A stretch of DNA of 64,000 nucleotides from Candidatus Nomurabacteria bacterium (GCA_026396015.1 JAPLXP010000003.1:176974-240973), one strand, 5' to 3'. Counted from the stretch's first letter, positions 11,448-58,209 are shown. Notes: generated by a model from the letters alone, not told the origin. Program-made: numbers and translations.

Positions 11448-11521
11448 GTAACTAGTTGCGAGTTTCTAATGACTAGAGTCTAGAAATTTCTAGAACCTAG
11501 AACCTAGAAACTATGCCCTAA
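11448..11521. repeat. CTAG-rich hairpin repeat, copy A (ssb leader)
   Basis: tctagaaatttctaga perfect palindrome plus ctagaacctagaacctagaaa. Shares ctagaacctag / ccctaa motifs with copies B, C and D. Confidence 0.6.
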
Positions 11522-11526
11522 TTTAT

Positions 11527-11989: not shown

Positions 11990-12062
11990 ATTAGTTTCTA
12001 GTTTCTAGTTTCTAGTGATAAATAAAATTTCCTAGAACCTAGTCCCTAGAACCTAGTCCCTA
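11990..12062. repeat. CTAG-rich hairpin repeat, copy B (rpsR leader)
   Basis: (tagtttc)x3 ... (ctagaacctagtcc)x2 ... ccctaa. 18-nt identity with the 16S insert (ctagaacctagtccctag). Confidence 0.6.
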
Positions 12063-12067
12063 ATTTT

Positions 12068-31926: not shown

Positions 31927-31990
31927 TAGTTCCTAGGTTTTAGTAAATTTACTAGAAACTAGAACCTAGTTACTAGTACCTAACCTAGAG
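31927..31990. repeat. CTAG-rich hairpin repeat, copy C
   Basis: cctaggttt TAGTAAATTTACTA gaaactagaacctagttactagtacctaacctaga; palindromic core; between topA start and dprA end. Confidence 0.55.
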
Positions 31991-32929: not shown

Positions 32930-33027
32930 GAAATAAGCTCTTCTCTAAACACACGCATATTTTTCTGTTGAAAAATTGCTCTGCTCGGCTACCCGCCTGC
33001 GCAAGTTGTTTTTCGAAGACTTATTTT
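32930..33027. mobile_element. MITE-like dispersed repeat, copy i (short variant)
   Basis: TIRs gaaataagctcttctc / gaagacttatttt; shares gagcagag...aatttttcaacagaaaaata / ttgcgcagg modules with copies ii-iv. Confidence 0.6.
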
Positions 33028-35221: not shown

Positions 35222-35356
35222 AAAATAAGCTCTTCTCGAAAAGCACGAATATTTTTCTGGTGAAAAATTTCTCTGCTCGTCGCTCAAGAAAATAACATTC
35301 GTAAACTCATTTATTTTCTAAGCTCCTGCGCAAGACTTTTCTCGAAGACTTATTTT
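35222..35356. mobile_element. MITE-like dispersed repeat, copy ii
   Basis: Reverse complement is ~90% identical to copy iii; TIRs aaaataagctcttctcg / cgaagacttatttt. Confidence 0.65.
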
Positions 35357-35378: not shown

Positions 35379-36509
35379 ATGAACAATTTCTGGGAAAAAT
35401 TAAATAAACCATTCTTTGTATTGGCTCCGATGGCAGATGTCACTGATCCAGCTTTTCGTCGCATCATAGCAAAGTATGGCAAGCCCGATGTGACTTGGAC
35501 AGAATTCGTATCTGCTGATGGCCTTGCTCATCCTGTCGCTCGTGAGAAATTAATTCGCGATTTAGCATATACGGAAACAGAGCGTCCAATAGTGGCTCAA
35601 CTATTTTCTAGTCATCCAGAACAAATGCGTACTGCAGCTCGTATCGTGGCGGAGCTCGGCTATGATGGTATCGACATCAATATGGGATGCCCTGATAGAT
35701 CTATAGAAAAGCAGGGTGCAGGTGCTGCGATGATGAAGACTCCAGATATAGCAGGTGTAATAATTCAAGCAGCCAAGGATGGGATACGAGATGCAGGCAA
35801 GGATATTCCATTGTCTGTAAAAACTCGCGTAGGATACAACCAAGTTCAGATAGATGAGTGGATACCATTCCTACTTTCTCAAGATATCGCCACTCTGACT
35901 GTGCATGCGAGAACTCGAAAAGAATTGTCCTCTGTGCCTGCAAACTGGTCATATGTAAAAAAAGTTGTAGAGATACGAAATAAAATGGGAGTAAAAACCA
36001 GGATCATTGGCAATGGTGATGTGCACAATGTGGCTCATGGTAGGCAGCTTGCTCTTGAAACGGGCTGCGATGGCATCATGATCGGCCGCGCGATATTCGG
36101 CAATCCGTGGATGTTCGCTAATACTGTGGATGATACGAGCAAAAAAAATGTATCCGAAAAAAGTCTTGCGCAGCGCGACTGGCGCGAGCAGAGCAAATTT
36201 TTAGCAAAAAATTATGTGTGCTTTTTGAGGAAATATTTTTTGGGCGAGTCTAAAAAAGATAAAGATAGATATTGGCTAGAGAATAAGATAGATATACCAG
36301 TATCTGAGAGACTACGAGTACTAGTAGAGCATACAAAACTATACGAAGAACTACTGGGTGACATTAAAAGTTTCTCAATAATGAAAAAGCACTACAAGGC
36401 ATACTGCAATGGATTCACCGGTGCAAAGGAGCTGCGTATGCAATTGATGGATTCTAATAGTGCAGAGGAGGTAGAAAATATAATAGATACTTTTTTAAAA
36501 ACACTTTAA
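35379..36509 (+). CDS. tRNA-dihydrouridine synthase
   Basis: Dus TIM-barrel N-terminus FVLAPMADVTDPAFRRI and catalytic Cys region GIDINMGCP. Confidence 0.85.
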   Translation: MNNFWEKLNKPFFVLAPMADVTDPAFRRIIAKYGKPDVTWTEFVSADGLAHPVAREKLIRDLAYTETERPIVAQLFSSHPEQMRTAARIVAELGYDGIDINMGCPDRSIEKQGAGAAMMKTPDIAGVIIQAAKDGIRDAGKDIPLSVKTRVGYNQVQIDEWIPFLLSQDIATLTVHARTRKELSSVPANWSYVKKVVEIRNKMGVKTRIIGNGDVHNVAHGRQLALETGCDGIMIGRAIFGNPWMFANTVDDTSKKNVSEKSLAQRDWREQSKFLAKNYVCFLRKYFLGESKKDKDRYWLENKIDIPVSERLRVLVEHTKLYEELLGDIKSFSIMKKHYKAYCNGFTGAKELRMQLMDSNSAEEVENIIDTFLKTL

Positions 36510-38433: not shown

Positions 38434-38506
38434 TTCTCAATAAAAACAGTATGTAATGTACTGTTTTTGTTTATAAAATAAGGGTATTTTGACTACTTGT
38501 GGGGTA

Positions 38507-38535
38507 TTGACAAAATAAGCCAAAGGGTGTATAAT
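38507..38535 (+). promoter_or_regulatory. sigma70-type promoter TTGACA-N17-TATAAT
   Basis: Consensus hexamers 10 nt upstream of ATG 38545. Confidence 0.5.
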
Positions 38536-38544
38536 AGGAACATT

Positions 38545-39003
38545 ATGAAAAAAGCAATTATATTTTTATCTGTTGGCTTTATGGCTCTGGGAATGGCATT
38601 TTTCACTCTTCCTGCAAAGTCTGAAGCTTTTACAGTATCTTTTGGTAATCTCGGAAATTACGGATCTAGTTATGGAGCAGGTTATGGTATAGGATATGGC
38701 AATACTTATGGTGGATACGGAGGTTATGGCTATGGCTATGGCCAAGGCGGCGCTGTGACATCTGGATACACTAGTGGTACTGGATACCCTTCAGCAAATT
38801 ATAATAATTATGGTATGGGTGGATACGGAATGAATACAGGATATGGTATGAATACAGGATATGGTATGGGATATGCCTCAAGCTACGGCATGGGTTATGG
38901 TTCAAGCTATGGAAGGGGCTACGGTTCAGGATACGGTATGGGATACACATCAGGTTATGGAGGATACGGAGGAGGATACGGATGTTTTATATTTTGTTTT
39001 TAA
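38545..39003 (+). CDS. secreted Gly/Tyr-rich low-complexity protein
   Basis: Signal peptide MKKAIIFLSVGFMALGMAFFTLPAKSEA then ~120 aa of GYG/YGMG repeats ending CFIFCF. Track start 38497 lies upstream of the -10 element. Confidence 0.5.
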   Translation: MKKAIIFLSVGFMALGMAFFTLPAKSEAFTVSFGNLGNYGSSYGAGYGIGYGNTYGGYGGYGYGYGQGGAVTSGYTSGTGYPSANYNNYGMGGYGMNTGYGMNTGYGMGYASSYGMGYGSSYGRGYGSGYGMGYTSGYGGYGGGYGCFIFCF

Positions 39004-39011
39004 AAGAATAA

Positions 39012-39052
39012 ATAAAAAGAGCCGCGACATTTGTCGCGGCTCTTTTTATTTA
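39012..39052. terminator. bidirectional terminator (aaagagccgcgacatttgtcgcggctcttt)
   Basis: Perfect 13-bp stem with flanking A/T runs between convergent genes. Confidence 0.75.
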
Positions 39053-40105
39053 TTCTTCGTCTTGTGGTTTCTCTATTGTGAGTGTCTCTACTTTTAAAGC
39101 TTCACCTGTGATACGCATCACGTCCTTGTCTACTTTTCGGAATTCATGATTAGACTTGTTGAAGTGGTTCACTGTGGTCTCTAATGCCGCACCCATCTTC
39201 TTGTGATACTCTTCGTACTTTTGTAGGTGTGTACCTAGTTCACCGACGCGCTTGATGATATCTTTTGCACCTTCCTCGATCTGCATAGCTTTTAGGCCCT
39301 GTAGGACTGTCTGTAGATAAGCTAGGAATGAAGTCGGCGATACGATGATGACTTTGTACTTACTAGCAGCTCTCTGTATTAGATTCTCTGTATCTTCACC
39401 GACGAGTGCACCGATTTTATTTACGAGTAAATCATAATAGATTGCCTCGTGAGGGATGAACATAAATGCGAATTCCATCGTACCATTCTCGGGTTGGATA
39501 TATTTTGAAGTTTCAGTAATACGATTCTTCAAATCATTTACAAAGACTTTTTCTAATCTGTCTTTCTCAGCCTTGTCACTCGTTTCGCTTATTCTGTTGT
39601 AATTTTCAAGCGAGAATTTTGAATCAATCGGGATTATTTTATCTTTTACAAATACCGCTGCATCCACTATCGTGCCGTCTGGAAAAGGGAATTGCATCTG
39701 ATATGAACCCGGTGGCATGATATTTTTCAAGAGTGTCTCGAGATAATATTCACCCAATATTCCACGCTGCTTTGGATTCTTCAATATGTCTTGGAGGCTC
39801 TGGAGCTGATCTGTGAATCCTACTACCTGCTTGTTAGTCTCGTCTAGTCTTGTGATCTTTTCTGTGATGTCTGAGATAATTCTTGAAGTCTCTGAAGATT
39901 GGTATCGCATAGACTGAGTCATCTCTTTTTGACTCTCGGTCAATTTATTATCAATAGTCCGAGTGAGCTCATTCATCTGAGAGAGGAGTAGCTGTAGTCC
40001 TGTGTCATCCTTTTTCTCTTCAGGTTTTGTATTTTTCTTTAGCAAAAGAAAAGCGATAATAATGCCCAATATAATTCCCAAAATAATTGTAATAGCTGTT
40101 GTCAT
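39050..40105 (-). CDS. rmuC: DNA recombination protein RmuC
   Basis: N-terminal TM plus coiled coil, conserved IPIDSKFSLENY and EFAFMFIPHEAIYYDLL motifs of the RmuC family. Confidence 0.75.
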   Translation of the reverse strand: MTTAITIILGIILGIIIAFLLLKKNTKPEEKKDDTGLQLLLSQMNELTRTIDNKLTESQKEMTQSMRYQSSETSRIISDITEKITRLDETNKQVVGFTDQLQSLQDILKNPKQRGILGEYYLETLLKNIMPPGSYQMQFPFPDGTIVDAAVFVKDKIIPIDSKFSLENYNRISETSDKAEKDRLEKVFVNDLKNRITETSKYIQPENGTMEFAFMFIPHEAIYYDLLVNKIGALVGEDTENLIQRAASKYKVIIVSPTSFLAYLQTVLQGLKAMQIEEGAKDIIKRVGELGTHLQKYEEYHKKMGAALETTVNHFNKSNHEFRKVDKDVMRITGEALKVETLTIEKPQDEE

Positions 40106-40154
40106 TCACATATTTTAGCATAAAAAGGTTATTTTTAGACCTTAAAATTACCCT

Positions 40155-40182
40155 TTACAAAATCAATCAAATATGATATAAT
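40155..40182 (+). promoter_or_regulatory. sigma70-type promoter TTTACA-N16-TATAAT
   Basis: Shares an atgatataatac -10 region with the helicase B promoter. Confidence 0.45.
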
Positions 40183-40202
40183 ACAAAAAAATTATTTGAA
40201 AA

Positions 40203-42212
40203 ATGAAAGTCAAAAAACTTAATCAGTTACCAGCCTGGAAGGCTAGTGCGATCCGTAACTTAAGAAAATACTTAAGATTACATGAAAACCCCCCTGTCCT
40301 TCGCGGGTTACAAATTCCACTTTTCAGTGATGTTATTGACTTTGTGCAAAGTGGTAAGAATGCTGGATATGTCAGTGCTCCTATGGGGACTGGTAAAACA
40401 GTTATTTTTACCGAATTCGCAAATGCACTAAAACAAAGAGTAATTGTTGTCGTTCCATCCATTCTTCTTATTCATCAGACCAGAGAAGAAATTGCTTCAT
40501 TTGCTCCATCGTTACGTGTCGGTCTTCTTTATTCAAAGAAGAAACAATATGATACTGACGTTGTTATTACTACTTATACCTCGTTAGGTATTGGTATCAA
40601 AAATGGAACACTTAAAGTAAAAGACTTTAATTGGCTGATTTTAGATGAAGCTCATGAGAGCTTGTCTGTAAGTCGCCAAAAGGTAGTCAATCGTTTCAAA
40701 CACGCAATCCGTTTAGGTTTTACTGCTTCTGAAAAATATGATGAGGAAAAACAATTGTCAAAATTATTGCCAAATGAAATTCATCGCATCACTATTCTTG
40801 AAGCCGTAGAAAGTGGTTTGCTGTGTCCTTTTTCTGTTGTCATTGCTCAAACTACAACGGATTTATCTAAAGTTGGTTCTGTTAATGGAGATTATGATAA
40901 AAAACAGCTTGAAAAAGCTGTAAACAAGGAGGGGCGAAATCGTTCGGCTGTAGCACTTTATGAGACAACTCCTTTTTATAAGGGTAAATCTTTGATGTGT
41001 CATTGTGTATCTATTGAGCACGCGGAAGCTGTAGCAAGAAAATTTCGTGCCAATGGGTGGCGAGCCGAAGCCGTGCATAGTCAGATTGAAGATGATACTA
41101 GAGGTAAAAGACTTCAAGATTTCTGTTCGGGGAAATTAACGGTACTTTGCAATGTTGATATTCTTACACGAGGATTCAATGCACCTATCGTGAGTATTTG
41201 TTTCAATCTTCGTCCTACTCGTTCGCTTGTAGTCGCTACTCAGAGAGCTCGTAATTTGCGCATAGACAGAAACAATTCAGACAAGTTTGCTGTTGTCGTT
41301 GATTTTGTTGATGCAAATTTTAATCGCTCTAATCCGCCTCTAACTTTTGATAAAGTTGTAGATGGGTCTGCTTTAGTTGTTCCTTCTTTCTGGAAAGATA
41401 ATAAAATTTTTTCAGAAATTTCAAAACAATTGCAACCTGCTATTCCTATAGATGATTTAAAGGTTTATGTTGAAACTAGTGAAGTACTAAGAATTACTGG
41501 AAGTATGCAAAAATGGGAAGAATCAAAGTGGGTTTCCGAAAAAGATATTAAAGATTTGTTCAATCAAAAAGGATGGAAAAACCAAAGAGAATATGATTCT
41601 CAAAGAACTAATTTTGTTGGTTTTCCTCATTCGGTTAATTTTCCTGATGTGTACAAGAAAACATTTGGTGAAGTTGTTTTTGGAAAAAAAGGGCTTAAGG
41701 ATGTCGAATGGCTTTTTGCAGAAGAAATCAAAAAATTATTTTTCGAAAATGATTGGAAAAATCAAAAAGGATACGAAAAAAACAAACCTTCCAATTGCCC
41801 TTCACCTTCAAATTTTCCAAGAATTTATAATACAACATTTAGTGAAATGATGTACGGAAGAAAAAAAGAAGTTAACGGTGTATGGTTGTCAGAAGAACAA
41901 GTTCGTGAACTTTTTTTAAAGGAAAAATGGAAAAATCAAGCTGAATATGACAAAAAAAGACCATCAGGATGTCCAAGCTTTAGTAATTTTAGGAAGTTTT
42001 ATGGAAAACCGTTTAAGGAGGTTATGTATCCTAATGGTAAATGGCCTTCAGAAGTGGATGTAAAAAAACTATTTATCGAAAATAAATGGAAAGATTACAA
42101 AGAATATAATAAAAATAAACCAAAAAATTATCCTTATTCTTTTCATTTCCCTGATATTTACAAAAAAACCTTCAATCAACTTGTTGGAGGAGAGTATAGA
42201 AAACATCTTTAA
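40203..42212 (+). CDS. SF2 (DEAH/ResIII-type) helicase A with four C-terminal ~55-aa repeats
   Basis: Walker A APMGTGKT, DEAH box LILDEAHES, motif VI TQRARNLR. C-terminus has 4 repeats of W.SE..IK.LF...WKNQ.EYDKK.P...PS.SNFP.IY.KTF. Confidence 0.8.
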   Translation: MKVKKLNQLPAWKASAIRNLRKYLRLHENPPVLRGLQIPLFSDVIDFVQSGKNAGYVSAPMGTGKTVIFTEFANALKQRVIVVVPSILLIHQTREEIASFAPSLRVGLLYSKKKQYDTDVVITTYTSLGIGIKNGTLKVKDFNWLILDEAHESLSVSRQKVVNRFKHAIRLGFTASEKYDEEKQLSKLLPNEIHRITILEAVESGLLCPFSVVIAQTTTDLSKVGSVNGDYDKKQLEKAVNKEGRNRSAVALYETTPFYKGKSLMCHCVSIEHAEAVARKFRANGWRAEAVHSQIEDDTRGKRLQDFCSGKLTVLCNVDILTRGFNAPIVSICFNLRPTRSLVVATQRARNLRIDRNNSDKFAVVVDFVDANFNRSNPPLTFDKVVDGSALVVPSFWKDNKIFSEISKQLQPAIPIDDLKVYVETSEVLRITGSMQKWEESKWVSEKDIKDLFNQKGWKNQREYDSQRTNFVGFPHSVNFPDVYKKTFGEVVFGKKGLKDVEWLFAEEIKKLFFENDWKNQKGYEKNKPSNCPSPSNFPRIYNTTFSEMMYGRKKEVNGVWLSEEQVRELFLKEKWKNQAEYDKKRPSGCPSFSNFRKFYGKPFKEVMYPNGKWPSEVDVKKLFIENKWKDYKEYNKNKPKNYPYSFHFPDIYKKTFNQLVGGEYRKHL

Positions 42213-42261
42213 AATTTTCACCTTCCACAAACACAGAGCGATAAAATGCTTTTGTGAATCA

Positions 42262-42305
42262 CAAAAGAGCAGAATCAACGAAGTTGATTCTGCTCTTTCT
42301 TTTTG
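42262..42305 (+). terminator. rho-independent terminator (agagcagaatcaacgaagttgattctgctct)
   Basis: Perfect 13-bp stem plus T-run, preceded by conserved palindrome ttttgtgaatcacaaaa. Confidence 0.7.
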
Positions 42306-42306
42306 C

Positions 42307-42336
42307 TTGACAATGTGTGTATTTTTATGATATAAT
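42307..42336 (+). promoter_or_regulatory. sigma70-type promoter TTGACA-N18-TATAAT
   Basis: Consensus hexamers upstream of helicase B. Confidence 0.55.
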
Positions 42337-42362
42337 ACTTAAAAATTAACAACTAAATATAA

Positions 42363-44261
42363 ATGAAAATAAAACTTTATGATTATCAAGAAATTGCCTA
42401 TCAGAAGGTAATACAGGCACTCAATAGTGCGGGTATCGCTCTGATGGTTATGGCAACTGGATTAGGTAAGACAATCGTATCAGCTCTGATAGCTCGATTC
42501 TTTTTGTCTTCTGGATCTGGTAAGCGCATTCTCTTTCTTTCCCATGATAATGGCATTCTAGAACAATCTTATCTGAAATATAAATTAATTTTAGGTAACG
42601 AATATTCTTATGCTCGTTTTTTTGGTAAAAAGAAAAATTGGAATGCAGATAAACATGATATTGTTTTTGCTACATTCCAATCCAAGCCGCATAAATTTTT
42701 TAAAGCGGACCACTTCGACTTTATTATTGTTGATGAGAGTCACCACAGTAAGGCTGATACTTATTTCTCTACATTAAATTATTTTACTCCTGTATGGAAG
42801 CTCGGTATGACTGCGACTCCTGATCGTGAAGATGAACGAGATATTCGTTCTATCTTTGGAAAAGAAGTTGTTACTTATGATCTTTCTGAGGCCATGGCAA
42901 ATGGTTGGCTGACACCTGTTGAATACAAGATTCTCAGTGATGGTATGGATTTAGCGATGCTTGAAGAAATTTGCCAAGAGGTATTAGTCGAAAATGTGCG
43001 TATATCTGAAAGTCAGCTCAATGAACGAATATTTATTCGTACGAGGAGTGATGAGCAGTGTAAACAGATTTTAGATTATACTAAAAATGGTTTAAAGGCT
43101 ATCGTGTTTTGTGCAAACATTACACACCTAGAACACATTATGGAGCTATTACCGAATAGTGTTGCCGTTCATTCTGGACGTACTGATGACGAGAATGATG
43201 AAGCAGAAATAATGTACCGTACTGGAAAAGCCTCCCATATACTCGTTGTAGATAAATACAATGAAGGGAAGGATTTACCTGATACTGATGTCCTTGTTTT
43301 TCTTCGTACTACTGATTCATACCGTATCTGGGTTCAACAGCTTGGACGCGGGCTACGCCTATTTCCTGGAAAAGATAAAGTTATTATTCTGGATTTTGTT
43401 GCAAACATTGAACGTGTAAAAAATGTTCATAGTTTTGCAATGCAGGTAAAAGAATATGGAGGAGGTGGAATAAATCAGGAATTCAAACTTGATACACCTC
43501 TTCATCTTGAAGGAAAAAACTTTAGCTTTGATTTCAGTTCAGAATTGGTAAATCTTATGTCTGTGTTTGAAAAGGTTAGTTTGAATTGTTATGCAAATTG
43601 GAAAGAAGCATCGAATGCTGCGATCAATCTTGGTATCACAAAACAAGAAGAATATCGTGCTTATTATAAGCAAGATATTAGACTACCCAGTGCTCCTGAA
43701 CAAGTCTACTCTGATTTTCCAGGATATAAAGTATTCTTAGGTGGAGTTTCTAAGGACTATTATCTAACTTGGCAAGAAGCCTCAATTGCTTCGATTAAAC
43801 TTGGTATTAAAACACAAGATCAATACCATAAGGATTATATGAATGATCCTAGATTGCCTTCACAAATAAATACTTTTTATCCTAATTTCCCAGGTTCAAA
43901 AGTTTTTTTTGGGGGAGTTGAAAAAGATTATTATTTAACCTTAAAAGAAGCACAAGAAGCAGCTAAAAAGTTGGGTATAAAAACCTACAAAGAGTATTCA
44001 AAAAGATACAAAGAGGATCCTAAGTTGCCATCTGTTCCAGGAAGATTTTATTCAGACTATGTAAGTTTTGATTTATTTATCGGCTCAGATTATTATTCAA
44101 CATGGCAAGAAGCTTCCGATTCTGTTAAAAAATTGAATATTTGTACTAGGGCAGATTACCAAAGAAAACAATTTTATAAAAAAGATTTAAGACTCCATTC
44201 AAATCCAGATATGTATTACAAAGATTTTCCAGACTGGCAAAATTTTTTAGGAAAAGAGTAA
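42363..44261 (+). CDS. SF2 (DESH/ResIII-type) helicase B with four C-terminal ~56-aa repeats
   Basis: Walker A ATGLGKT, DESH box IVDESHHS, motif VI QQLGRGLR. C-terminus has 4 repeats of YYLTW.EAS.A.KKLGIKT..EY.K.YK.DPRLPS.P...YS.FPG...FLGG. Confidence 0.8.
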   Translation: MKIKLYDYQEIAYQKVIQALNSAGIALMVMATGLGKTIVSALIARFFLSSGSGKRILFLSHDNGILEQSYLKYKLILGNEYSYARFFGKKKNWNADKHDIVFATFQSKPHKFFKADHFDFIIVDESHHSKADTYFSTLNYFTPVWKLGMTATPDREDERDIRSIFGKEVVTYDLSEAMANGWLTPVEYKILSDGMDLAMLEEICQEVLVENVRISESQLNERIFIRTRSDEQCKQILDYTKNGLKAIVFCANITHLEHIMELLPNSVAVHSGRTDDENDEAEIMYRTGKASHILVVDKYNEGKDLPDTDVLVFLRTTDSYRIWVQQLGRGLRLFPGKDKVIILDFVANIERVKNVHSFAMQVKEYGGGGINQEFKLDTPLHLEGKNFSFDFSSELVNLMSVFEKVSLNCYANWKEASNAAINLGITKQEEYRAYYKQDIRLPSAPEQVYSDFPGYKVFLGGVSKDYYLTWQEASIASIKLGIKTQDQYHKDYMNDPRLPSQINTFYPNFPGSKVFFGGVEKDYYLTLKEAQEAAKKLGIKTYKEYSKRYKEDPKLPSVPGRFYSDYVSFDLFIGSDYYSTWQEASDSVKKLNICTRADYQRKQFYKKDLRLHSNPDMYYKDFPDWQNFLGKE

Positions 44262-44316
44262 AATTTTCATTTGTACTTTCTAAAACACAGAGCAATAAAT
44301 TGCTTTTGTGATTCAC

Positions 44317-44362
44317 AAAAAAGCATAATCAACTTCGTTGATTATGCTTTTTCTTTTTTTTA
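44317..44362 (+). terminator. rho-independent terminator (gcataatcaacttcgttgattatgc + T-run)
   Basis: Paralogous to the helicase A terminator; preceded by ttttgtgattcacaaaa palindrome. Confidence 0.7.
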
Positions 44363-44435
44363 AAATTTTATACCTATTTACAAAAATATTTAGATATTGT
44401 AATGTAAAAAGAAACTAAAGAAAGGAAAATTAAAT

Positions 44436-45179
44436 ATGAAAAAATCATTAATTATTAAAACAGAAAGCAATTTCGTAAGAGAGTTGTTATTGCTACTCAA
44501 GTATTATGATTGCTTAACAGAAGCAGATGAAATTCTTTCTCAAATAGGAGGGGTTGGAAGGAGAGAGGAATATCTTGATGCTGGAGACGAAAAACCTTCT
44601 TTGTTCCGTAGTAATGTAGATATGGACTTAGAGCCATTTGTGCTTGAAGCTATTTTGCTAAATCAAATTAAAAAATCAGATTTTTTTTCTGTAGAAATTA
44701 AGTTCAACTACAAGAATTCTAATAAAATTTTAAATGAACTTGATTCTAAGACTGAATTTACTGGAATTGGGGACGTAGAAGATTTTCTTGGTATTAATAA
44801 TTTTTCATTAGAAATTGAAACTAAGGAGGTATTTTTTATTCCTATAATAAGGACAAAAAATATTAAGGATATTAAAAAATTTATTTCAGATAAAGGCTTC
44901 GAGCCTCTTGGTACATTTGAATTACTTTCTTATCTTGGTTATGTTCATTCACTTAGGAAAAAATCAAATTGGGAAAAATCTCAAAAACTCCTACCTAAAG
45001 CTTTCCATGGAAAGGGTGTACCTATAATTGCTATACGTGATATTTTACTTAGAAGTCATAAGCAATCATATCAAAAATCAGTATTACTTTCTGCTCAGAA
45101 TCTTTATCACATCAGAGTAAGAAGTTCTGCTGGAGGATTCAATAAAATCGTTTATGTTATCTGTGAGAAAAAGAAATAA
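44436..45179 (+). CDS. hypothetical protein
   Basis: 247-aa ORF, no motif recognised; sits between helicase B and the exonuclease. Confidence 0.4.
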   Translation: MKKSLIIKTESNFVRELLLLLKYYDCLTEADEILSQIGGVGRREEYLDAGDEKPSLFRSNVDMDLEPFVLEAILLNQIKKSDFFSVEIKFNYKNSNKILNELDSKTEFTGIGDVEDFLGINNFSLEIETKEVFFIPIIRTKNIKDIKKFISDKGFEPLGTFELLSYLGYVHSLRKKSNWEKSQKLLPKAFHGKGVPIIAIRDILLRSHKQSYQKSVLLSAQNLYHIRVRSSAGGFNKIVYVICEKKK

Positions 45180-45223
45180 AATAAAGCCACTATTATTAAT
45201 TAATGGTGGCTTATTTTTTCTAT

Positions 45224-45946
45224 TTAAACTAATTTTCCTAAATGATATCTTAAAGTATATATCCAATCTTCGTCGTCTGGATCGCTGGTTTCTTTTTGAT
45301 TGAGGAACCATTCGAGGTATCCACGGTCGATGCGGGCTACGTCGGCTACAGATTTGCCAGAGTGTTTTCCAAAAGAGAACATACTCATGAGTGATGGCTT
45401 TGATGATATCTCGATCATCTCAGCGTAGGCACCCTCGTCGTCTGTATTTTTTTCTTTCTTTATCTTTTCTACTAGTCTCTCAAAAAGTTTTTCCAGTACG
45501 AGTACATCACCGAGTGCATCGTGGGCCTGAGCCTCGATGTCGATATCTAAAAAGTATCGTAGATATTGGAGCTTGTGCTGGGGGATCTTGCCATCTTTAT
45601 CGAGTGCTCGCACTACGCGGAGTGTGCAGATAGTATGCGCAGGTACGATGCCTTCTTTCTTGATCATTCCTATATCAAATTTTGCATTGTGGGCTACCAT
45701 GATAGTATCGCCGTCCTCGAGCATTGATTTGATATTTTTATAATCATTACTTTCCTTGAATGATGGCTTGTCCGCCACCATCTTGTTTGATATATGCGTT
45801 ACAGCAGACGCTTCGGGTGGGATCTTCATCCCTGGATTATAAAGTTCGCAGAATATCTCGTCACCAGTTTTATAAGCTAGCTGACACAGAAGGTCTGTCG
45901 CATTTATACCTGTAGTCTCAGTATCTAAAAATACAATTTTTTTCAT
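45224..45946 (-). CDS. DEDDh 3'-5' exonuclease (DnaQ/epsilon-like) with C-terminal extension
   Basis: Exo I FLDTETTG, Exo II MVAHNAKFDIGM, Exo III HDALGDVLV. Confidence 0.75.
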   Translation of the reverse strand: MKKIVFLDTETTGINATDLLCQLAYKTGDEIFCELYNPGMKIPPEASAVTHISNKMVADKPSFKESNDYKNIKSMLEDGDTIMVAHNAKFDIGMIKKEGIVPAHTICTLRVVRALDKDGKIPQHKLQYLRYFLDIDIEAQAHDALGDVLVLEKLFERLVEKIKKEKNTDDEGAYAEMIEISSKPSLMSMFSFGKHSGKSVADVARIDRGYLEWFLNQKETSDPDDEDWIYTLRYHLGKLV

Positions 45947-46002
45947 GCATTTATTTTATCACAATATGCGCCATCAAAATAGCTTCCATTAAAGTGTAAT
46001 TA

Positions 46003-46135
46003 AAATAGTCCTTGAAAAAAGTCTTGCGCAGGAACTTAGAAAATAAATGAGTTTACGAGTATTATTTTCTTGAGTGACGAGCAGAGAAATTTTCTACCAA
46101 GAAAATATTCGTGCTTTTTGAGAGGAGCTATTTTA
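46003..46135. mobile_element. MITE-like dispersed repeat, copy iii
   Basis: Full-length copy with modules aagtcttgcgcaggaacttagaaaataaatgagtttacgag...gagcagagaaattttctaccaagaaaatattcgtgctttttgagaggagctatttt. Confidence 0.65.
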
Positions 46136-49686: not shown

Positions 49687-49736
49687 TGGGGCACATATTA
49701 AAAAAACCGCATAAAGCGGTTTTTTTAATATGTGCC
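49687..49736. terminator. perfect 25-bp-arm inverted repeat / bidirectional terminator that includes the 3' end of tRNA-Lys
   Basis: atggggcacatattaaaaaaaccgc ATAA gcggtttttttaatatgtgccccat; right arm overlaps the tRNA-Lys acceptor 3' strand. Confidence 0.7.
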
Positions 49737-49805
49737 CCATGGAGGGATCGAACCTCCGACCGTCTCCTTAAGAGGGAGCTGCTCTACCAGCTGAGCTAAC
49801 AGGGC
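49733..49805 (-). tRNA. tRNA-Lys (anticodon CTT)
   Basis: Acceptor gccctgt/atggggc (two GU pairs), D-arm gctc-agctggta-gagc, anticodon loop cuCUUaa, T-arm ggaggttcgatccctcc. One mismatch at the base of the anticodon stem. Confidence 0.7.
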
Positions 49806-49814
49806 ATAACGAAT

Positions 49815-50030
49815 TTAAAACATTAAACTAAACTATTTACCATGTATTCTGTTATTTACCAAAACAGCGTAACAAGGCTTATCTAAACTTAAAACATTAA
49901 ACTAAACTATTTACCATGTATTCTGTTATTTACCAAAACAGCGTAACAAGGCTTATCTAAACTTAAAACATTAAACTAAACTATTTACCATGTATTCTGT
50001 TATTTACCAAAACAGCTAACAGGGCGTAAA
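49815..50030. repeat. tandem direct repeat, 74-bp unit x ~3
   Basis: Unit ttaaaacattaaactaaactatttaccatgtattctgttatttaccaaaacagcgtaacaaggcttatctaaac at 49815, 49889, 49963. Last copy diverges to cagctaacagggc, which is identical to the tRNA-Lys 5' end. Confidence 0.8.
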
Positions 50031-50122
50031 AGTTAAAAAATATTTAACTCTGTCATTATTGCAGAAAAAGCTATTTTTGTAAATAGTGTTTGCTTTTCTT
50101 TGTAAAGGAGTATAATTAGTGT

Positions 50123-50881: not shown

Positions 50882-52482
<1,601 letters not shown>

Positions 52483-52831: not shown

Positions 52832-54481
52832 ATGAAAAAATTTTATTCAGCTTTATTGATTTTGCTTTTAGTTATTGTTCTTGTTCCCACTAAATCTTTT
52901 GCTAGTTCTACTTGGGTTGATGTGTCTTCAGCAGGATCTGGTGCTTGGCAGGCTGTGGCGTCTTCATCTAATGGTACAAAATTAGTCGCAATTGTTTATG
53001 GCGGTGGAATATATACCTCTTCAGATAGTGGTGTGACTTGGGCGCCTCAATCTTCTGCTGGAAATAGAAATTGGAAGAACGTAGCATCTTCATCAGATGG
53101 TACAAAATTGGTCGCCACTGCTTATGGTGGTGATATTTATACCTCTACAAATAGTGGTGTAACTTGGGTAGATCAAACTACATCTGGTGCTCGTAACTGG
53201 AATGGGTTAGCTGTGTCTTCTGATGGATCAAAAATTGTCGCTGCTGTTTATGGTGGTGATATTTATACTTCTACTAATGGTGGTGTTGACTGGACTGATA
53301 GAGTTTCTGCTGGAGTGTCAAATTGGAATACTATAGCTGCCTCTTCTGATGGTGTTAATATTGTTGCTGGTATTTTTGGTGGTTATTTATCTACTTCAAA
53401 TGATGGAGGTGCTACTTGGTCTATACAAAATTCTTCTGGTTCAAGAAATTGGTTTTCATTAGCTTCTTCATCTGATGGTACAAAATTAGCTGCAGTTGAA
53501 TATGGTGGTGGAATTTATACCTCTACTGATAGTGGTGTAACTTGGGTAAATAAAACTTCCGCTGGTAATCATAATTGGAAAAGTATTGCTATTTCGGATG
53601 ATTTATCAAGATTAATTGCTGTTGCATATAGTGTGGATTATGTTTATCTTTCTATAGATGGTGGTTTAACATGGATACGTCAAGACTCTGCAGGTGCTAG
53701 TTACTGGCAATATGTAACAGCATCTTCTGATTTTACTAATGTGGTTTCTCTTGTTTATGGTGGTGATATTTATCATGGATTATTTACTTTTCTTCCTGTT
53801 GTGTCAACTGGATCTTCCTCAAGTACAACATTAGATTCTACTGTTCTATCTGGATCAATAAATTTTTCTGGAGGTGAGAATAATACTGTCAGAGGTATAA
53901 ATTATGGTCTTACTTCTAGTTATGGTTCTGTTGTTTCTGAAATTGGCTCATACGGAGCAGGGACTTTTAACTTGAATGTTACAGGTCTTACTTGTGCTAC
54001 TACATACCACTATTCAGCTTTTTCTACAAATGGTGTAGGTACTAGTACGGGTTCTGATTCTACTTTTGATACATTACCTTGCCCAGTTCATCATTCTGGT
54101 GGTCATCCACCAATAATTACTTCTTCTGGAGGAGGTGGTGCACCAGTTGTGACAGATATTATAGTTCCTACAGTTGTGATCCCTCCTGCGCCAGTTGAAA
54201 ATAAGATTATTTTAAATAATGTTGTTACTAGTTCTTCTTCATCATCAAATAAACTCTCAAAGCATTTAAATATAAATATGAAGGATCCAGAGGTTAAAAT
54301 ACTACAACAATTTTTAATCGATCAAAATAAAGGGTCAAAATCTAAATTGATTTACTTGAGTAATTCTTTCGGACCAAAAACAAAATCTGCACTTGTTGAA
54401 TGGCAAAAATCTGCAGGATTGGAATCTGACGGAGTATTGGGACCCGAGACTAGATCAAAGATAAACGATATTTTAAAATAA
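52832..54481 (+). CDS. secreted BNR/Asp-box beta-propeller protein with FN3-like module and C-terminal peptidoglycan-binding domain
   Basis: Signal peptide. ~7 repeats SAG..NW...A.SSDGTKLVA..YGG.IYTS..SGVTW (Asp-box S.D.G.TW). C-terminal PG_binding_1-like LVEWQKSAGLESDGVLGPET. Confidence 0.6.
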   Translation: MKKFYSALLILLLVIVLVPTKSFASSTWVDVSSAGSGAWQAVASSSNGTKLVAIVYGGGIYTSSDSGVTWAPQSSAGNRNWKNVASSSDGTKLVATAYGGDIYTSTNSGVTWVDQTTSGARNWNGLAVSSDGSKIVAAVYGGDIYTSTNGGVDWTDRVSAGVSNWNTIAASSDGVNIVAGIFGGYLSTSNDGGATWSIQNSSGSRNWFSLASSSDGTKLAAVEYGGGIYTSTDSGVTWVNKTSAGNHNWKSIAISDDLSRLIAVAYSVDYVYLSIDGGLTWIRQDSAGASYWQYVTASSDFTNVVSLVYGGDIYHGLFTFLPVVSTGSSSSTTLDSTVLSGSINFSGGENNTVRGINYGLTSSYGSVVSEIGSYGAGTFNLNVTGLTCATTYHYSAFSTNGVGTSTGSDSTFDTLPCPVHHSGGHPPIITSSGGGGAPVVTDIIVPTVVIPPAPVENKIILNNVVTSSSSSSNKLSKHLNINMKDPEVKILQQFLIDQNKGSKSKLIYLSNSFGPKTKSALVEWQKSAGLESDGVLGPETRSKINDILK

Positions 54482-57999: not shown

Positions 58000-58209
58000 G
58001 AAATAAAATAATTATTGAAAAAGTCTTGCGCAGGAGATTAGAAAATAAATGAGTTTACGAATATTATTTTCTTGATTGAGGGGATTAAATAAAAACTGCT
58101 TTTTATTTAATCCGGTTCGCGAAGCGAAATTGCCGATGCGAAGCAGGCAATAGGGAGAGATATTTTTCAACAGAAAAATATTCGTGCTTTTTGAAATAAG
58201 TTATTTTAT
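58000..58209. mobile_element. MITE-like dispersed repeat, copy iv (with ~75-nt nested insertion)
   Basis: Same modules as copy iii, interrupted at cttgattgag | gagagatat by gggattaaataaaaactgctttttatttaatccggttcgcgaagcgaaattgccgatgcgaagcaggcaatagg. Confidence 0.6.

Follow-up and report, generated by a model that had tools for sequence, protein, structure and literature searches.

Tandem C-terminal repeats on two neighbouring helicases of a Candidatus Nomurabacteria genome: PF14882 INT_rpt units and a rare, probably related family with a candidate DNA-targeting role

The Pfam family PF14882 (INT_rpt, "Integrase repeat unit", formerly PHINT_rpt), for which the NCBI product name is "integrase repeat-containing protein", is listed in a 2021 survey table among the repeat families without a solved structure (PMC8078820). 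Beyond that table and the paper on Gamma-Mobile-Trio islands, we found no other literature trace of it. The latter paper, in which the INT_rpt repeats are not mentioned, reports that gmtZ (vpa1269) is required for the mobility of the islands, namely for their circularisation and insertion (bioRxiv 10.1101/2023.03.28.534373). We found that PF14882 sits on this integrase: the GmtZ homologue of the Marinobacter plasmid pMAQU02 ("VPA1269 family protein", 1273 amino acids [aa]), whose gene lies between gmtY and gmtX, carries eight INT_rpt units before its Integrase_2 and Phage_integrase domains. Here, we describe a stretch of 64,000 nucleotides (nt) from a Candidatus Nomurabacteria metagenome-assembled genome (GCA_026396015.1 JAPLXP010000003.1:176974-240973, hereafter the window), in which two neighbouring genes, helicase A and helicase B, each encode a C-terminal array of four tandem units. 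On sequence evidence, the units of helicase B belong to PF14882, whereas those of helicase A form a rare family, probably related to it, that Pfam misses. We propose that both arrays could target the helicase motor to DNA.

The two genes lie head to tail, and their GenBank product name is only "DEAD/DEAH box helicase family protein". The genes, the units, and the linker that precedes the second array are as follows:

40203 to 42212, + strand: helicase A gene, open reading frame (ORF) of 669 aa (GenBank MCX6756045.1)
41526 to 41702, + strand: A-type unit 1, aa 442-500 (unit alignment, predicted four-helix unit)
41703 to 41879, + strand: A-type unit 2, aa 501-559 (unit alignment, predicted structure)
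41880 to 42038, + strand: A-type unit 3, aa 560-612 (unit alignment, predicted structure)
42039 to 42209, + strand: A-type unit 4, aa 613-669 (unit alignment, predicted structure)
42363 to 44261, + strand: helicase B gene, ORF of 632 aa (GenBank MCX6756046.1)
43503 to 43580, + strand: linker motif LHLEGKNFSFDFSSELVNLMSVFEKV, directly before the helicase B array (11-protein alignment)
43584 to 43757, + strand: INT_rpt unit 1, aa 408-465 (PF14882 match, unit alignment, predicted structure)
43758 to 43928, + strand: INT_rpt unit 2, aa 466-522 (PF14882 match, unit alignment, predicted structure)
43929 to 44090, + strand: INT_rpt unit 3, aa 523-576 (PF14882 match, unit alignment, predicted structure)
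44091 to 44258, + strand: INT_rpt unit 4, aa 577-632 (PF14882 match, unit alignment, predicted structure)

The arrays span aa 442-669 of helicase A (nt 41526-42209) and aa 408-632 of helicase B (nt 43584-44258), with units of about 52-59 aa in both. Within each protein, unit pairs gave local scores of 95-150, corresponding to z = 15-26 against shuffled sequences, with an identity of 35-53%. The repeats are thus far beyond chance, as an initial annotation of this locus had it in reporting four-unit repeats on both helicases, and the example peptides given there are present verbatim in the two proteins. The interval assigned to the repeats (41500-44261) spans both arrays, but it also takes in the non-repeat core of helicase B (42363-43583). 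No tandem repeat was found at the DNA level under either array, therefore the units are old duplications. A low-complexity artefact as their origin was rejected. The units had also been described as devoid of Cys and His, which is wrong in detail: SNCPS, SGCPS, FPHS, and FHF occur in the A units, and NCYANW, NICTR, YHKDY, and RLHS in the B units. No Cys or His column is conserved across the units of A or B, so the conclusion that they are not a zinc ribbon stands, and zinc ribbon or zinc finger repeats, which need such a ligand column, were rejected.

The repeat had been considered unclassified on both helicases, which holds for helicase A, as its units have no match in Pfam, NCBIfam, or PHROGs, and does not hold for helicase B. 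The latter matches PF14882 over four stretches with 74.9 bits (cutoff 26.5, E = 5.9e-21), its single units score 17.6-31.6 bits, and PF14882 is already given for this protein in the public record of the contig. By these profile matches, the helicase B units are ordinary members of PF14882. The Pfam model starts ~22 residues off the unit initially drawn, i.e., mid-unit at the EY position. The array bears the family signature, Y-x-T-W-Q-E-A...L-G-I...Y...Y-K-x-D-x-R-L-P-S-x-P...Y-x-D-F-P-G-W..F-L-G, in tandem units of ~55 aa (the INT_rpt consensus was drawn from 332 family units). In a collection of 5.8 billion proteins, the array has 86 homologues, nearly all annotated as PF14882 (retrieved proteins are designated P and loci L). 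These include Patescibacteria proteins named "integrase repeat-containing protein", several C-terminal fragments of helicases (Helicase_C followed by INT_rpt), the ParB protein P0079, the zinc-ribbon protein P0054, and many INT_rpt-only proteins. The GmtZ/VPA1269 integrase bears the same repeat as helicase B, on a DNA enzyme acting at specific sites; it differs in being a tyrosine recombinase rather than a helicase and in having its array at the N-terminal side. PF14882 is therefore already known by name, while the DNA role discussed below is our hypothesis.

On helicase A, PF14882 gave no match at E <= 1 with the whole protein, nor at E <= 10 with the array. Since the A units fail this test of membership, we did not file them under PF14882. 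An exhaustive HMMER search of 1.84 billion cluster representatives with the four-unit profile retrieved 31 proteins at E <= 0.001, from which 116 A-type units were extracted. PF14882 is absent from the families reported for 28 of the A-type proteins, and in all 28 the repeat is left uncovered by Pfam. The family was only reachable by exhaustive profile search: a word-indexed homologue search returned nothing with the helicase A array, and with a 109-unit A profile it returned solely the 70-aa protein P0113. Neither the Joint Genome Institute label of P0113 ("HigA antitoxin") nor the weak HTH_AraC/HTH_18 matches on four of the 28 A-type proteins (best E = 0.018) was used as evidence. A tblastn search of 50,697 phage genomes with both arrays gave no match, and nothing was found in viral contigs with P0100. 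The A-type consensus reads WasEeevR.fiqG.t..eYd..R......P.s..Fp.iYGKTF.EvRDG, with Tyr, Pro, Phe, and Tyr columns conserved at 93%, 92%, 84%, and 89%, respectively. As judged from these profiles, the helicase A units form a rare, unnamed family, probably a sister of INT_rpt, that current models miss.

A profile search for the repeat outside helicases, proposed in the initial annotation, was successful, as the A-type units were also found on GIY-YIG and endonuclease VII proteins and in solo arrays. On SF2 (superfamily 2) helicases they accompany at least three core types: A-type cores (P0087 and P0089), B-type cores (P0088 and P0102), and GC-rich helicases of ~800 aa (P0093-95, P0099, P0103, P0116, and P0117). 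They follow a GIY-YIG domain in P0100, P0101, and P0110, precede an SNF2 helicase that ends in GIY-YIG in P0091, and precede endonuclease VII in P0112 and P0114. In the GIY-YIG proteins P0100 and P0101 they are the sole non-catalytic part, so that the sister family alone accompanies the catalytic domain of some homing-endonuclease-like nucleases of phage-like contigs. Solo arrays reach eight units, with P0090, P0096, and P0098 as enzyme-free examples. Furthermore, a degenerate DNA pattern for YGKTFxExRDG matched four viral contigs of IMG/VR, 83-407 kb long, in which A-type units verified by hidden Markov model (HMM) lie at the C-terminal side of GIY-YIG proteins; a fifth match (Spirillospora), inside an FAD monooxygenase, was discarded as chance. 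The N-terminal parts of P0108, P0090, and P0092 consist of another repeat of ~60 aa (roughly ...TWPs....iEGDGRTW..l..wL.rnG.sl..lc.eLGr) without a Pfam match, which may be another unnamed helical repeat.

From their gene content, the contexts of the A-type relatives look phage-like. The neighbours of P0091 are a DNA methylase gene and a ribonucleotide reductase gene split by an HNH gene, P0112 adjoins a DnaB-like gene, P0094 lies in a 140-kb contig of small unknown ORFs, and P0100 is one of three GIY-YIG genes scattered through a 141-kb contig of unknown ORFs. At L006 (9340-11472), an HNH_3 endonuclease gene splits the gene for the ribonucleotide reductase small subunit, and at L007 (4781-12288) three GIY-YIG genes, two of them with A-type arrays, lie on the strand opposite to the unknown ORFs of the 141-kb contig. 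Both loci are typical homing-endonuclease landscapes of large phages. The A-type units share with the DNA-binding modules of homing endonucleases (NUMOD1/NUMOD3 and the helix-turn-helix of I-TevI-like GIY-YIG enzymes) the C-terminal position as a string of small modules and the phage-like contigs. The resemblance is one of role only, an analogy and not membership; indeed, Pfam scans of the A-type GIY-YIG and endonuclease VII relatives gave no match to NUMOD1/3/4.

We then compared the two repeat types. Single A-versus-B unit pairs gave z = -1 to 2.1, i.e., noise level, and a four-versus-four unit profile comparison with hhalign gave E = 0.064 over 10 columns. Thus, the statement that the A and B consensus sequences are alignable fails at the single-unit level, and the similarity emerges only with deep profiles and predicted structure. 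Indeed, profiles from 116 A-type and 332 INT_rpt units aligned end to end and in register over 43 columns (hhalign, P = 8.9e-5), with a score of 21.0, whereas 30 column-shuffled controls scored 6.2-13.9 and a reversed profile 6.4; the hhalign probability was just 60%, which falls short of the 90-95% usually expected for homology in comparisons of this type. At E <= 0.1, the A-unit HMM found 20 of the 87 INT_rpt proteins (0 for the reversed control and 0.7 on average for the shuffled ones), and the reciprocal search found 5/31 A-type proteins (controls, 0 and 0.3). The two types have in common the unit length, the tandem layout, the predicted four-helix layout, and nearly invariant Tyr, Pro, Tyr, Phe, and Gly residues in the same order and on the same predicted structural elements. 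They differ in signature (YGKTFxEvRDG in A-type units versus RLPSxPxxxYxDFPGWxxFLG in INT_rpt) and in helices 3 and 4, which are longer in the A-type units.

A further line of evidence comes from the B-type helicase cores, on which both repeat types share one start point. It follows motif VI (QQLGRGLR) and a linker, G-x-F-x-F-x-F-S...L, that is kept in 11 proteins regardless of which type comes next. Closest to helicase B is P0088, which shares 64% identity with it over aa 1-403 and bears A-type units; more distant relatives bear either type, the two being interspersed among related cores. The shared start point and the swap in P0088 indicate that the A-type units are probably interchangeable in function with INT_rpt, as far as sequence can tell, with one family standing in for the other at a single position of a helicase family.

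Common ancestry of the A-type and INT_rpt units is likely, and we hold with fairly good confidence that they are probably divergent branches of one superfamily. Several of the results above weigh against this conclusion and would suit an alternative in which the two types are unrelated and converged in size, composition, and helical pattern, the helicase A repeat being a separate new domain: the noise-level scores of single units, the absence of any Pfam INT_rpt match on the helicase A array at E <= 10 and on the A-type proteins (0/28), the modest hhalign probability, and the different signatures. Such convergence, which we consider unlikely though to be taken seriously, would have to produce an end-to-end match in register that exceeds all controls in score and in proteins found, the same order of nearly invariant residues on the same predicted elements, and an identical insertion point for both types in one helicase family.

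AlphaFold2 models of both arrays (pLDDT, the predicted local distance difference test, of 91.4 and 88.7) show the same four-helix unit, with the same helix order and spacing. Each predicted unit starts with four N-terminal, strand-like residues including an aromatic one, followed by helix 1 (10-11 residues), a turn of 4-5 residues, helix 2 with the nearly invariant Tyr, a 7-residue loop with the nearly invariant Pro, two short helices, and a Gly-rich linker. Despite the high pLDDT (89-91), the predicted template modelling score (pTM) of the arrays is 0.47-0.51, and the pLDDT dips at every unit junction. The models therefore do not favour the solenoid that the initial annotation had proposed to look for, and suggest rather that the units fold independently on flexible linkers.

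As regards the proteins to which the arrays are attached, the SF2 core covers aa 1-441 of helicase A (Pfam ResIII, 1.6e-23; Helicase_C, 7e-10) and aa 1-407 of helicase B (ResIII, 2.3e-30; SWI2_SNF2; Helicase_C). Walker A and DExH motifs are legible in both (GTGKT and DEAH in helicase A), and we regard both helicases as intact motor proteins of SF2. Among solved structures, the cores closest to theirs are those of 7clg_A, a type I R subunit, and RadD; 7clg_A ("putative helicase") is the nearest chain to both helicase A and helicase B (3e-36 for the latter), in each case over the core alone. We take 7clg to be the type IV restriction enzyme SauUSI, with a C-terminal DNA-recognition domain. Like helicases A and B, 7clg_A, RadD, and the type I restriction R subunits consist of a motor and then a C-terminal accessory domain, but the alignment is limited to the motor (aa ~24-350) and the C-terminal domains of helicases A and B are unrelated to theirs. 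Unlike the type I and type IV restriction helicase subunits, helicases A and B have no nuclease domain in Pfam. Membership of the EcoAI and RadD families (NCBIfam) was rejected, as the matches (132 bits against a cutoff of 550 and 104 against 720, respectively) concern the motor region alone. PADLOC gave just partial matches confined to the motor domain, and we claim no defined defence system. A genome-contig scan with helicase A returned no relative.

On balance, we lean towards the reading that both arrays are DNA-targeting or tethering modules for the motor, by analogy with the enzymes that carry the same repeats. Nucleic-acid binding is supported only indirectly, via the fused enzymes: all the partner domains, namely tyrosine integrase, ParB, GIY-YIG, endonuclease VII, and several SF2 cores, act on DNA. 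Free-standing homing endonucleases need a DNA-recognition part, and in established ones such as I-TevI it is the non-catalytic part that binds DNA; as P0100 and P0101 have no other non-catalytic part, the units would be the sole candidate for DNA recognition there. Weak support comes from the charge of the units, which are mildly basic (mean net charge about +2, median isoelectric point [pI] 9.1-9.3) with conserved Arg/Lys positions, and from the nearest solved cores. The conserved basic residues comprise positions 8 and 23 and the Lys of YGKTF in the A-type units and the Arg of RLPS in INT_rpt. In the mechanism that we propose, a flexible chain of four small domains would follow the second RecA-like domain of each helicase; each unit would be a weak DNA-contacting module, the array would add combined binding strength and targeting, and it would thereby tether or load the motor on its DNA substrate. 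An equal targeting role would apply to the integrases, ParB proteins, and homing-endonuclease-like nucleases with these repeats.

A number of results weigh against DNA targeting. No Foldseek match was obtained at E < 0.2 in the PDB or among viral models, so no known DNA-binding fold was recognised. Indeed, the whole arrays gave nothing below E = 3.7 against the PDB and nothing below E = 0.24 against BFVD, and sequence-profile searches of the PDB with the arrays found no match (a 24-residue match to NONO-1, E = 0.075, was judged to be chance); consequently, the fold is not tied to a known DNA-binding fold. The idea of a SAP-like module, raised in the initial annotation, found no backing, with no SAP or HeH match in Pfam, no PDB sequence match, and no Foldseek match at E < 3, the whole-array query being insensitive for a 35-aa motif such as SAP, LEM, or Rho-N. 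That annotation had also named the HA domain (Helicase-associated, PF03457) as the known family that would make the repeat not novel. Although HA is likewise a helical repeat at helicase C-terminal ends, helicases A and B are not members, since the HA model matches neither protein at E <= 1 and neither array at E <= 10. The charge of the helicase B array is modest (pI 8.7, net charge +4). Position-specific orthology of units between related proteins was tested and not found, which argues against each unit reading a fixed DNA sub-site. Lastly, fusion to DNA enzymes is also compatible with protein recruitment.

The main alternative is accordingly that the arrays are protein-protein adaptors that recruit the helicase, integrase, or nuclease to a partner, such as the single-stranded DNA-binding protein SSB, a replisome or recombination factor, the neighbouring RmuC or ExoX-like proteins, or a sensed phage protein. 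The lack of a matched DNA-binding fold and the only mildly positive charge are in keeping with this, flexibly linked units would suit multivalent protein binding as well as DNA, enzyme-free arrays exist (P0090, P0096, P0098, and many INT_rpt-only proteins), and the conserved rmuC and exoX-like neighbours offer candidate partners. We nevertheless regard adaptors as rather improbable, because the repeats occur on diverse DNA enzymes in Patescibacteria, Gammaproteobacteria plasmids, and large phage-like contigs, a range over which DNA is the one common factor and a shared protein partner is unlikely, and because in P0100 and P0101 no other candidate for a DNA-recognition part is left. Binding of RNA or of a cell-envelope polymer, as by the aromatic-rich tandem repeats of cell-wall-binding proteins, is very improbable: the arrays are indeed rich in aromatics (18%), the best, non-significant viral Foldseek match (E = 0.24) is a phage peptidoglycan hydrolase, and sequence alone does not tell whether such SF2 cores act on DNA or RNA, but signal peptides and membrane segments are absent from both helicases, the partner domains (integrase, ParB, GIY-YIG, endonuclease VII, and ResIII helicases) all belong to DNA enzymes of the cytoplasm, and no RNA-metabolism domain is found among them.

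If the units do bind DNA, as the targeting reading holds, it would become easier to understand how the integrases, nucleases, and helicases that carry them locate their sites, and a new small helical DNA-binding fold would be added. An anonymous repeat is thus turned into a concrete and cheaply testable DNA-targeting hypothesis, and two proteins annotated only as "DEAD/DEAH box helicase family protein" gain a domain description. A bolder version, which we offer as a long shot, is that INT_rpt and A-type units are a superfamily of DNA-reading repeats, in which the target would follow from the order of the units, each of ~55 aa and in contact with a few base pairs. In that event, the arrays would decide where Gamma-Mobile-Trio islands insert, where a class of phage homing endonucleases of the GIY-YIG and endonuclease VII types cleaves, and where these Patescibacteria helicases are loaded, and a motor could be retargeted through the exchange of arrays that is observed between helicase cores.

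The slot that holds the two helicases is bounded by rmuC and an exoX-like gene, and the surrounding features are as follows:

39050 to 40105, - strand: rmuC, left flank of the helicase slot, conserved in three related genomes
42210 to 42305, + strand: helicase A 3' flank, two-hairpin terminator-like element (fold z = -5.2)
44259 to 44355, + strand: helicase B 3' flank, second copy of the two-hairpin element (fold z = -6.3)
44436 to 45179, + strand: ORF of 247 aa (MCX6756047.1, hypothetical), without a PHROGs match
45224 to 45946, - strand: ExoX-like DEDDh exonuclease, conserved right neighbour of the helicase slot

The rmuC / helicase / exoX-like synteny holds in three genomes, i.e., the window and two related metagenomic contigs, and the content of the slot varies among them. 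Comparing the window (39050-45946) with L002 (2600-6727) and L003 (6856-10865), L002 has a B-type core only and L003 an A-type core only, while both helicases and the extra 247-aa ORF are found only in the slot of the window. On the P0088 contig the single helicase of the slot combines a B-type core with A-type units, and on the P0089 contig an A-type core with A-type units; P0089 and helicase A share 42% identity overall and 48% within the core. Such surroundings suggest that the helicases serve DNA recombination, DNA repair, or defence against foreign DNA. The 247-aa ORF has no Pfam family in the public record of the contig, which is the source for Pfam here, and shows a weak PADLOC "homing endonuclease" match (E = 7.6e-4).

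The ~95 nt after the stop codons of helicases A and B are 86% identical, with compensatory changes in the stems. This two-hairpin element has only two copies in the window and no match in Rfam. The promoters of the two genes (40172-40215 and 42326-42369) share TATGATATAATAC...AAAAATTA. Since 3' flanks and promoters are alike though the coding sequences are just ~22% identical to each other, the arrangement suggests that two alternative helicase cassettes, homologous in their flanks, have come to lie in tandem.

Elsewhere in the window, both repeat families named in the initial annotation as possible substrates of the arrays, the CTAG repeats and those resembling miniature inverted-repeat transposable elements (MITEs), are present, but none of our results points to their recognition by the arrays. 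MITE-like intergenic repeats of up to 133 nt, 87% identical and in both orientations, lie at 35223-35355, 46002-46134, 58001-58208, 32931-32987, and 36141-36242, one copy being just past the exoX-like gene, beside the helicase locus. CTAG-rich short repeats (CTAGAACCTAG...) lie at 11490-11525, 12032-12067, 31952-31987, and 52013-52127, the last forming a hairpin with 55-nt arms; these correspond to the "CTAG hairpins" of that annotation. A tRNA-Lys(CTT) gene (49732-49805, - strand) is followed directly by three tandem copies of 74 nt (49812-50033, 81-99% identical), and a related 45-nt repeat (49785-49829) overlaps the tRNA gene; the region may be an integration-site scar or a set of duplicated tRNA fragments. 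Two further ORFs have repetitive products. The one at 38497-39003 (+ strand, 168 aa) has a hydrophobic segment at its N-terminus and, after it, a low-complexity region that is very rich in Gly and Tyr, with GYG and GMGY repeats. The other, at 52832-54481 (+ strand), encodes a predicted secreted protein of 549 aa with five or more repeats of ~42 aa (YGGxIYTSxDxGxTW), seen in the DNA as a 126-nt period at 52956-53663, and its C-terminus resembles a peptidoglycan-binding motif.

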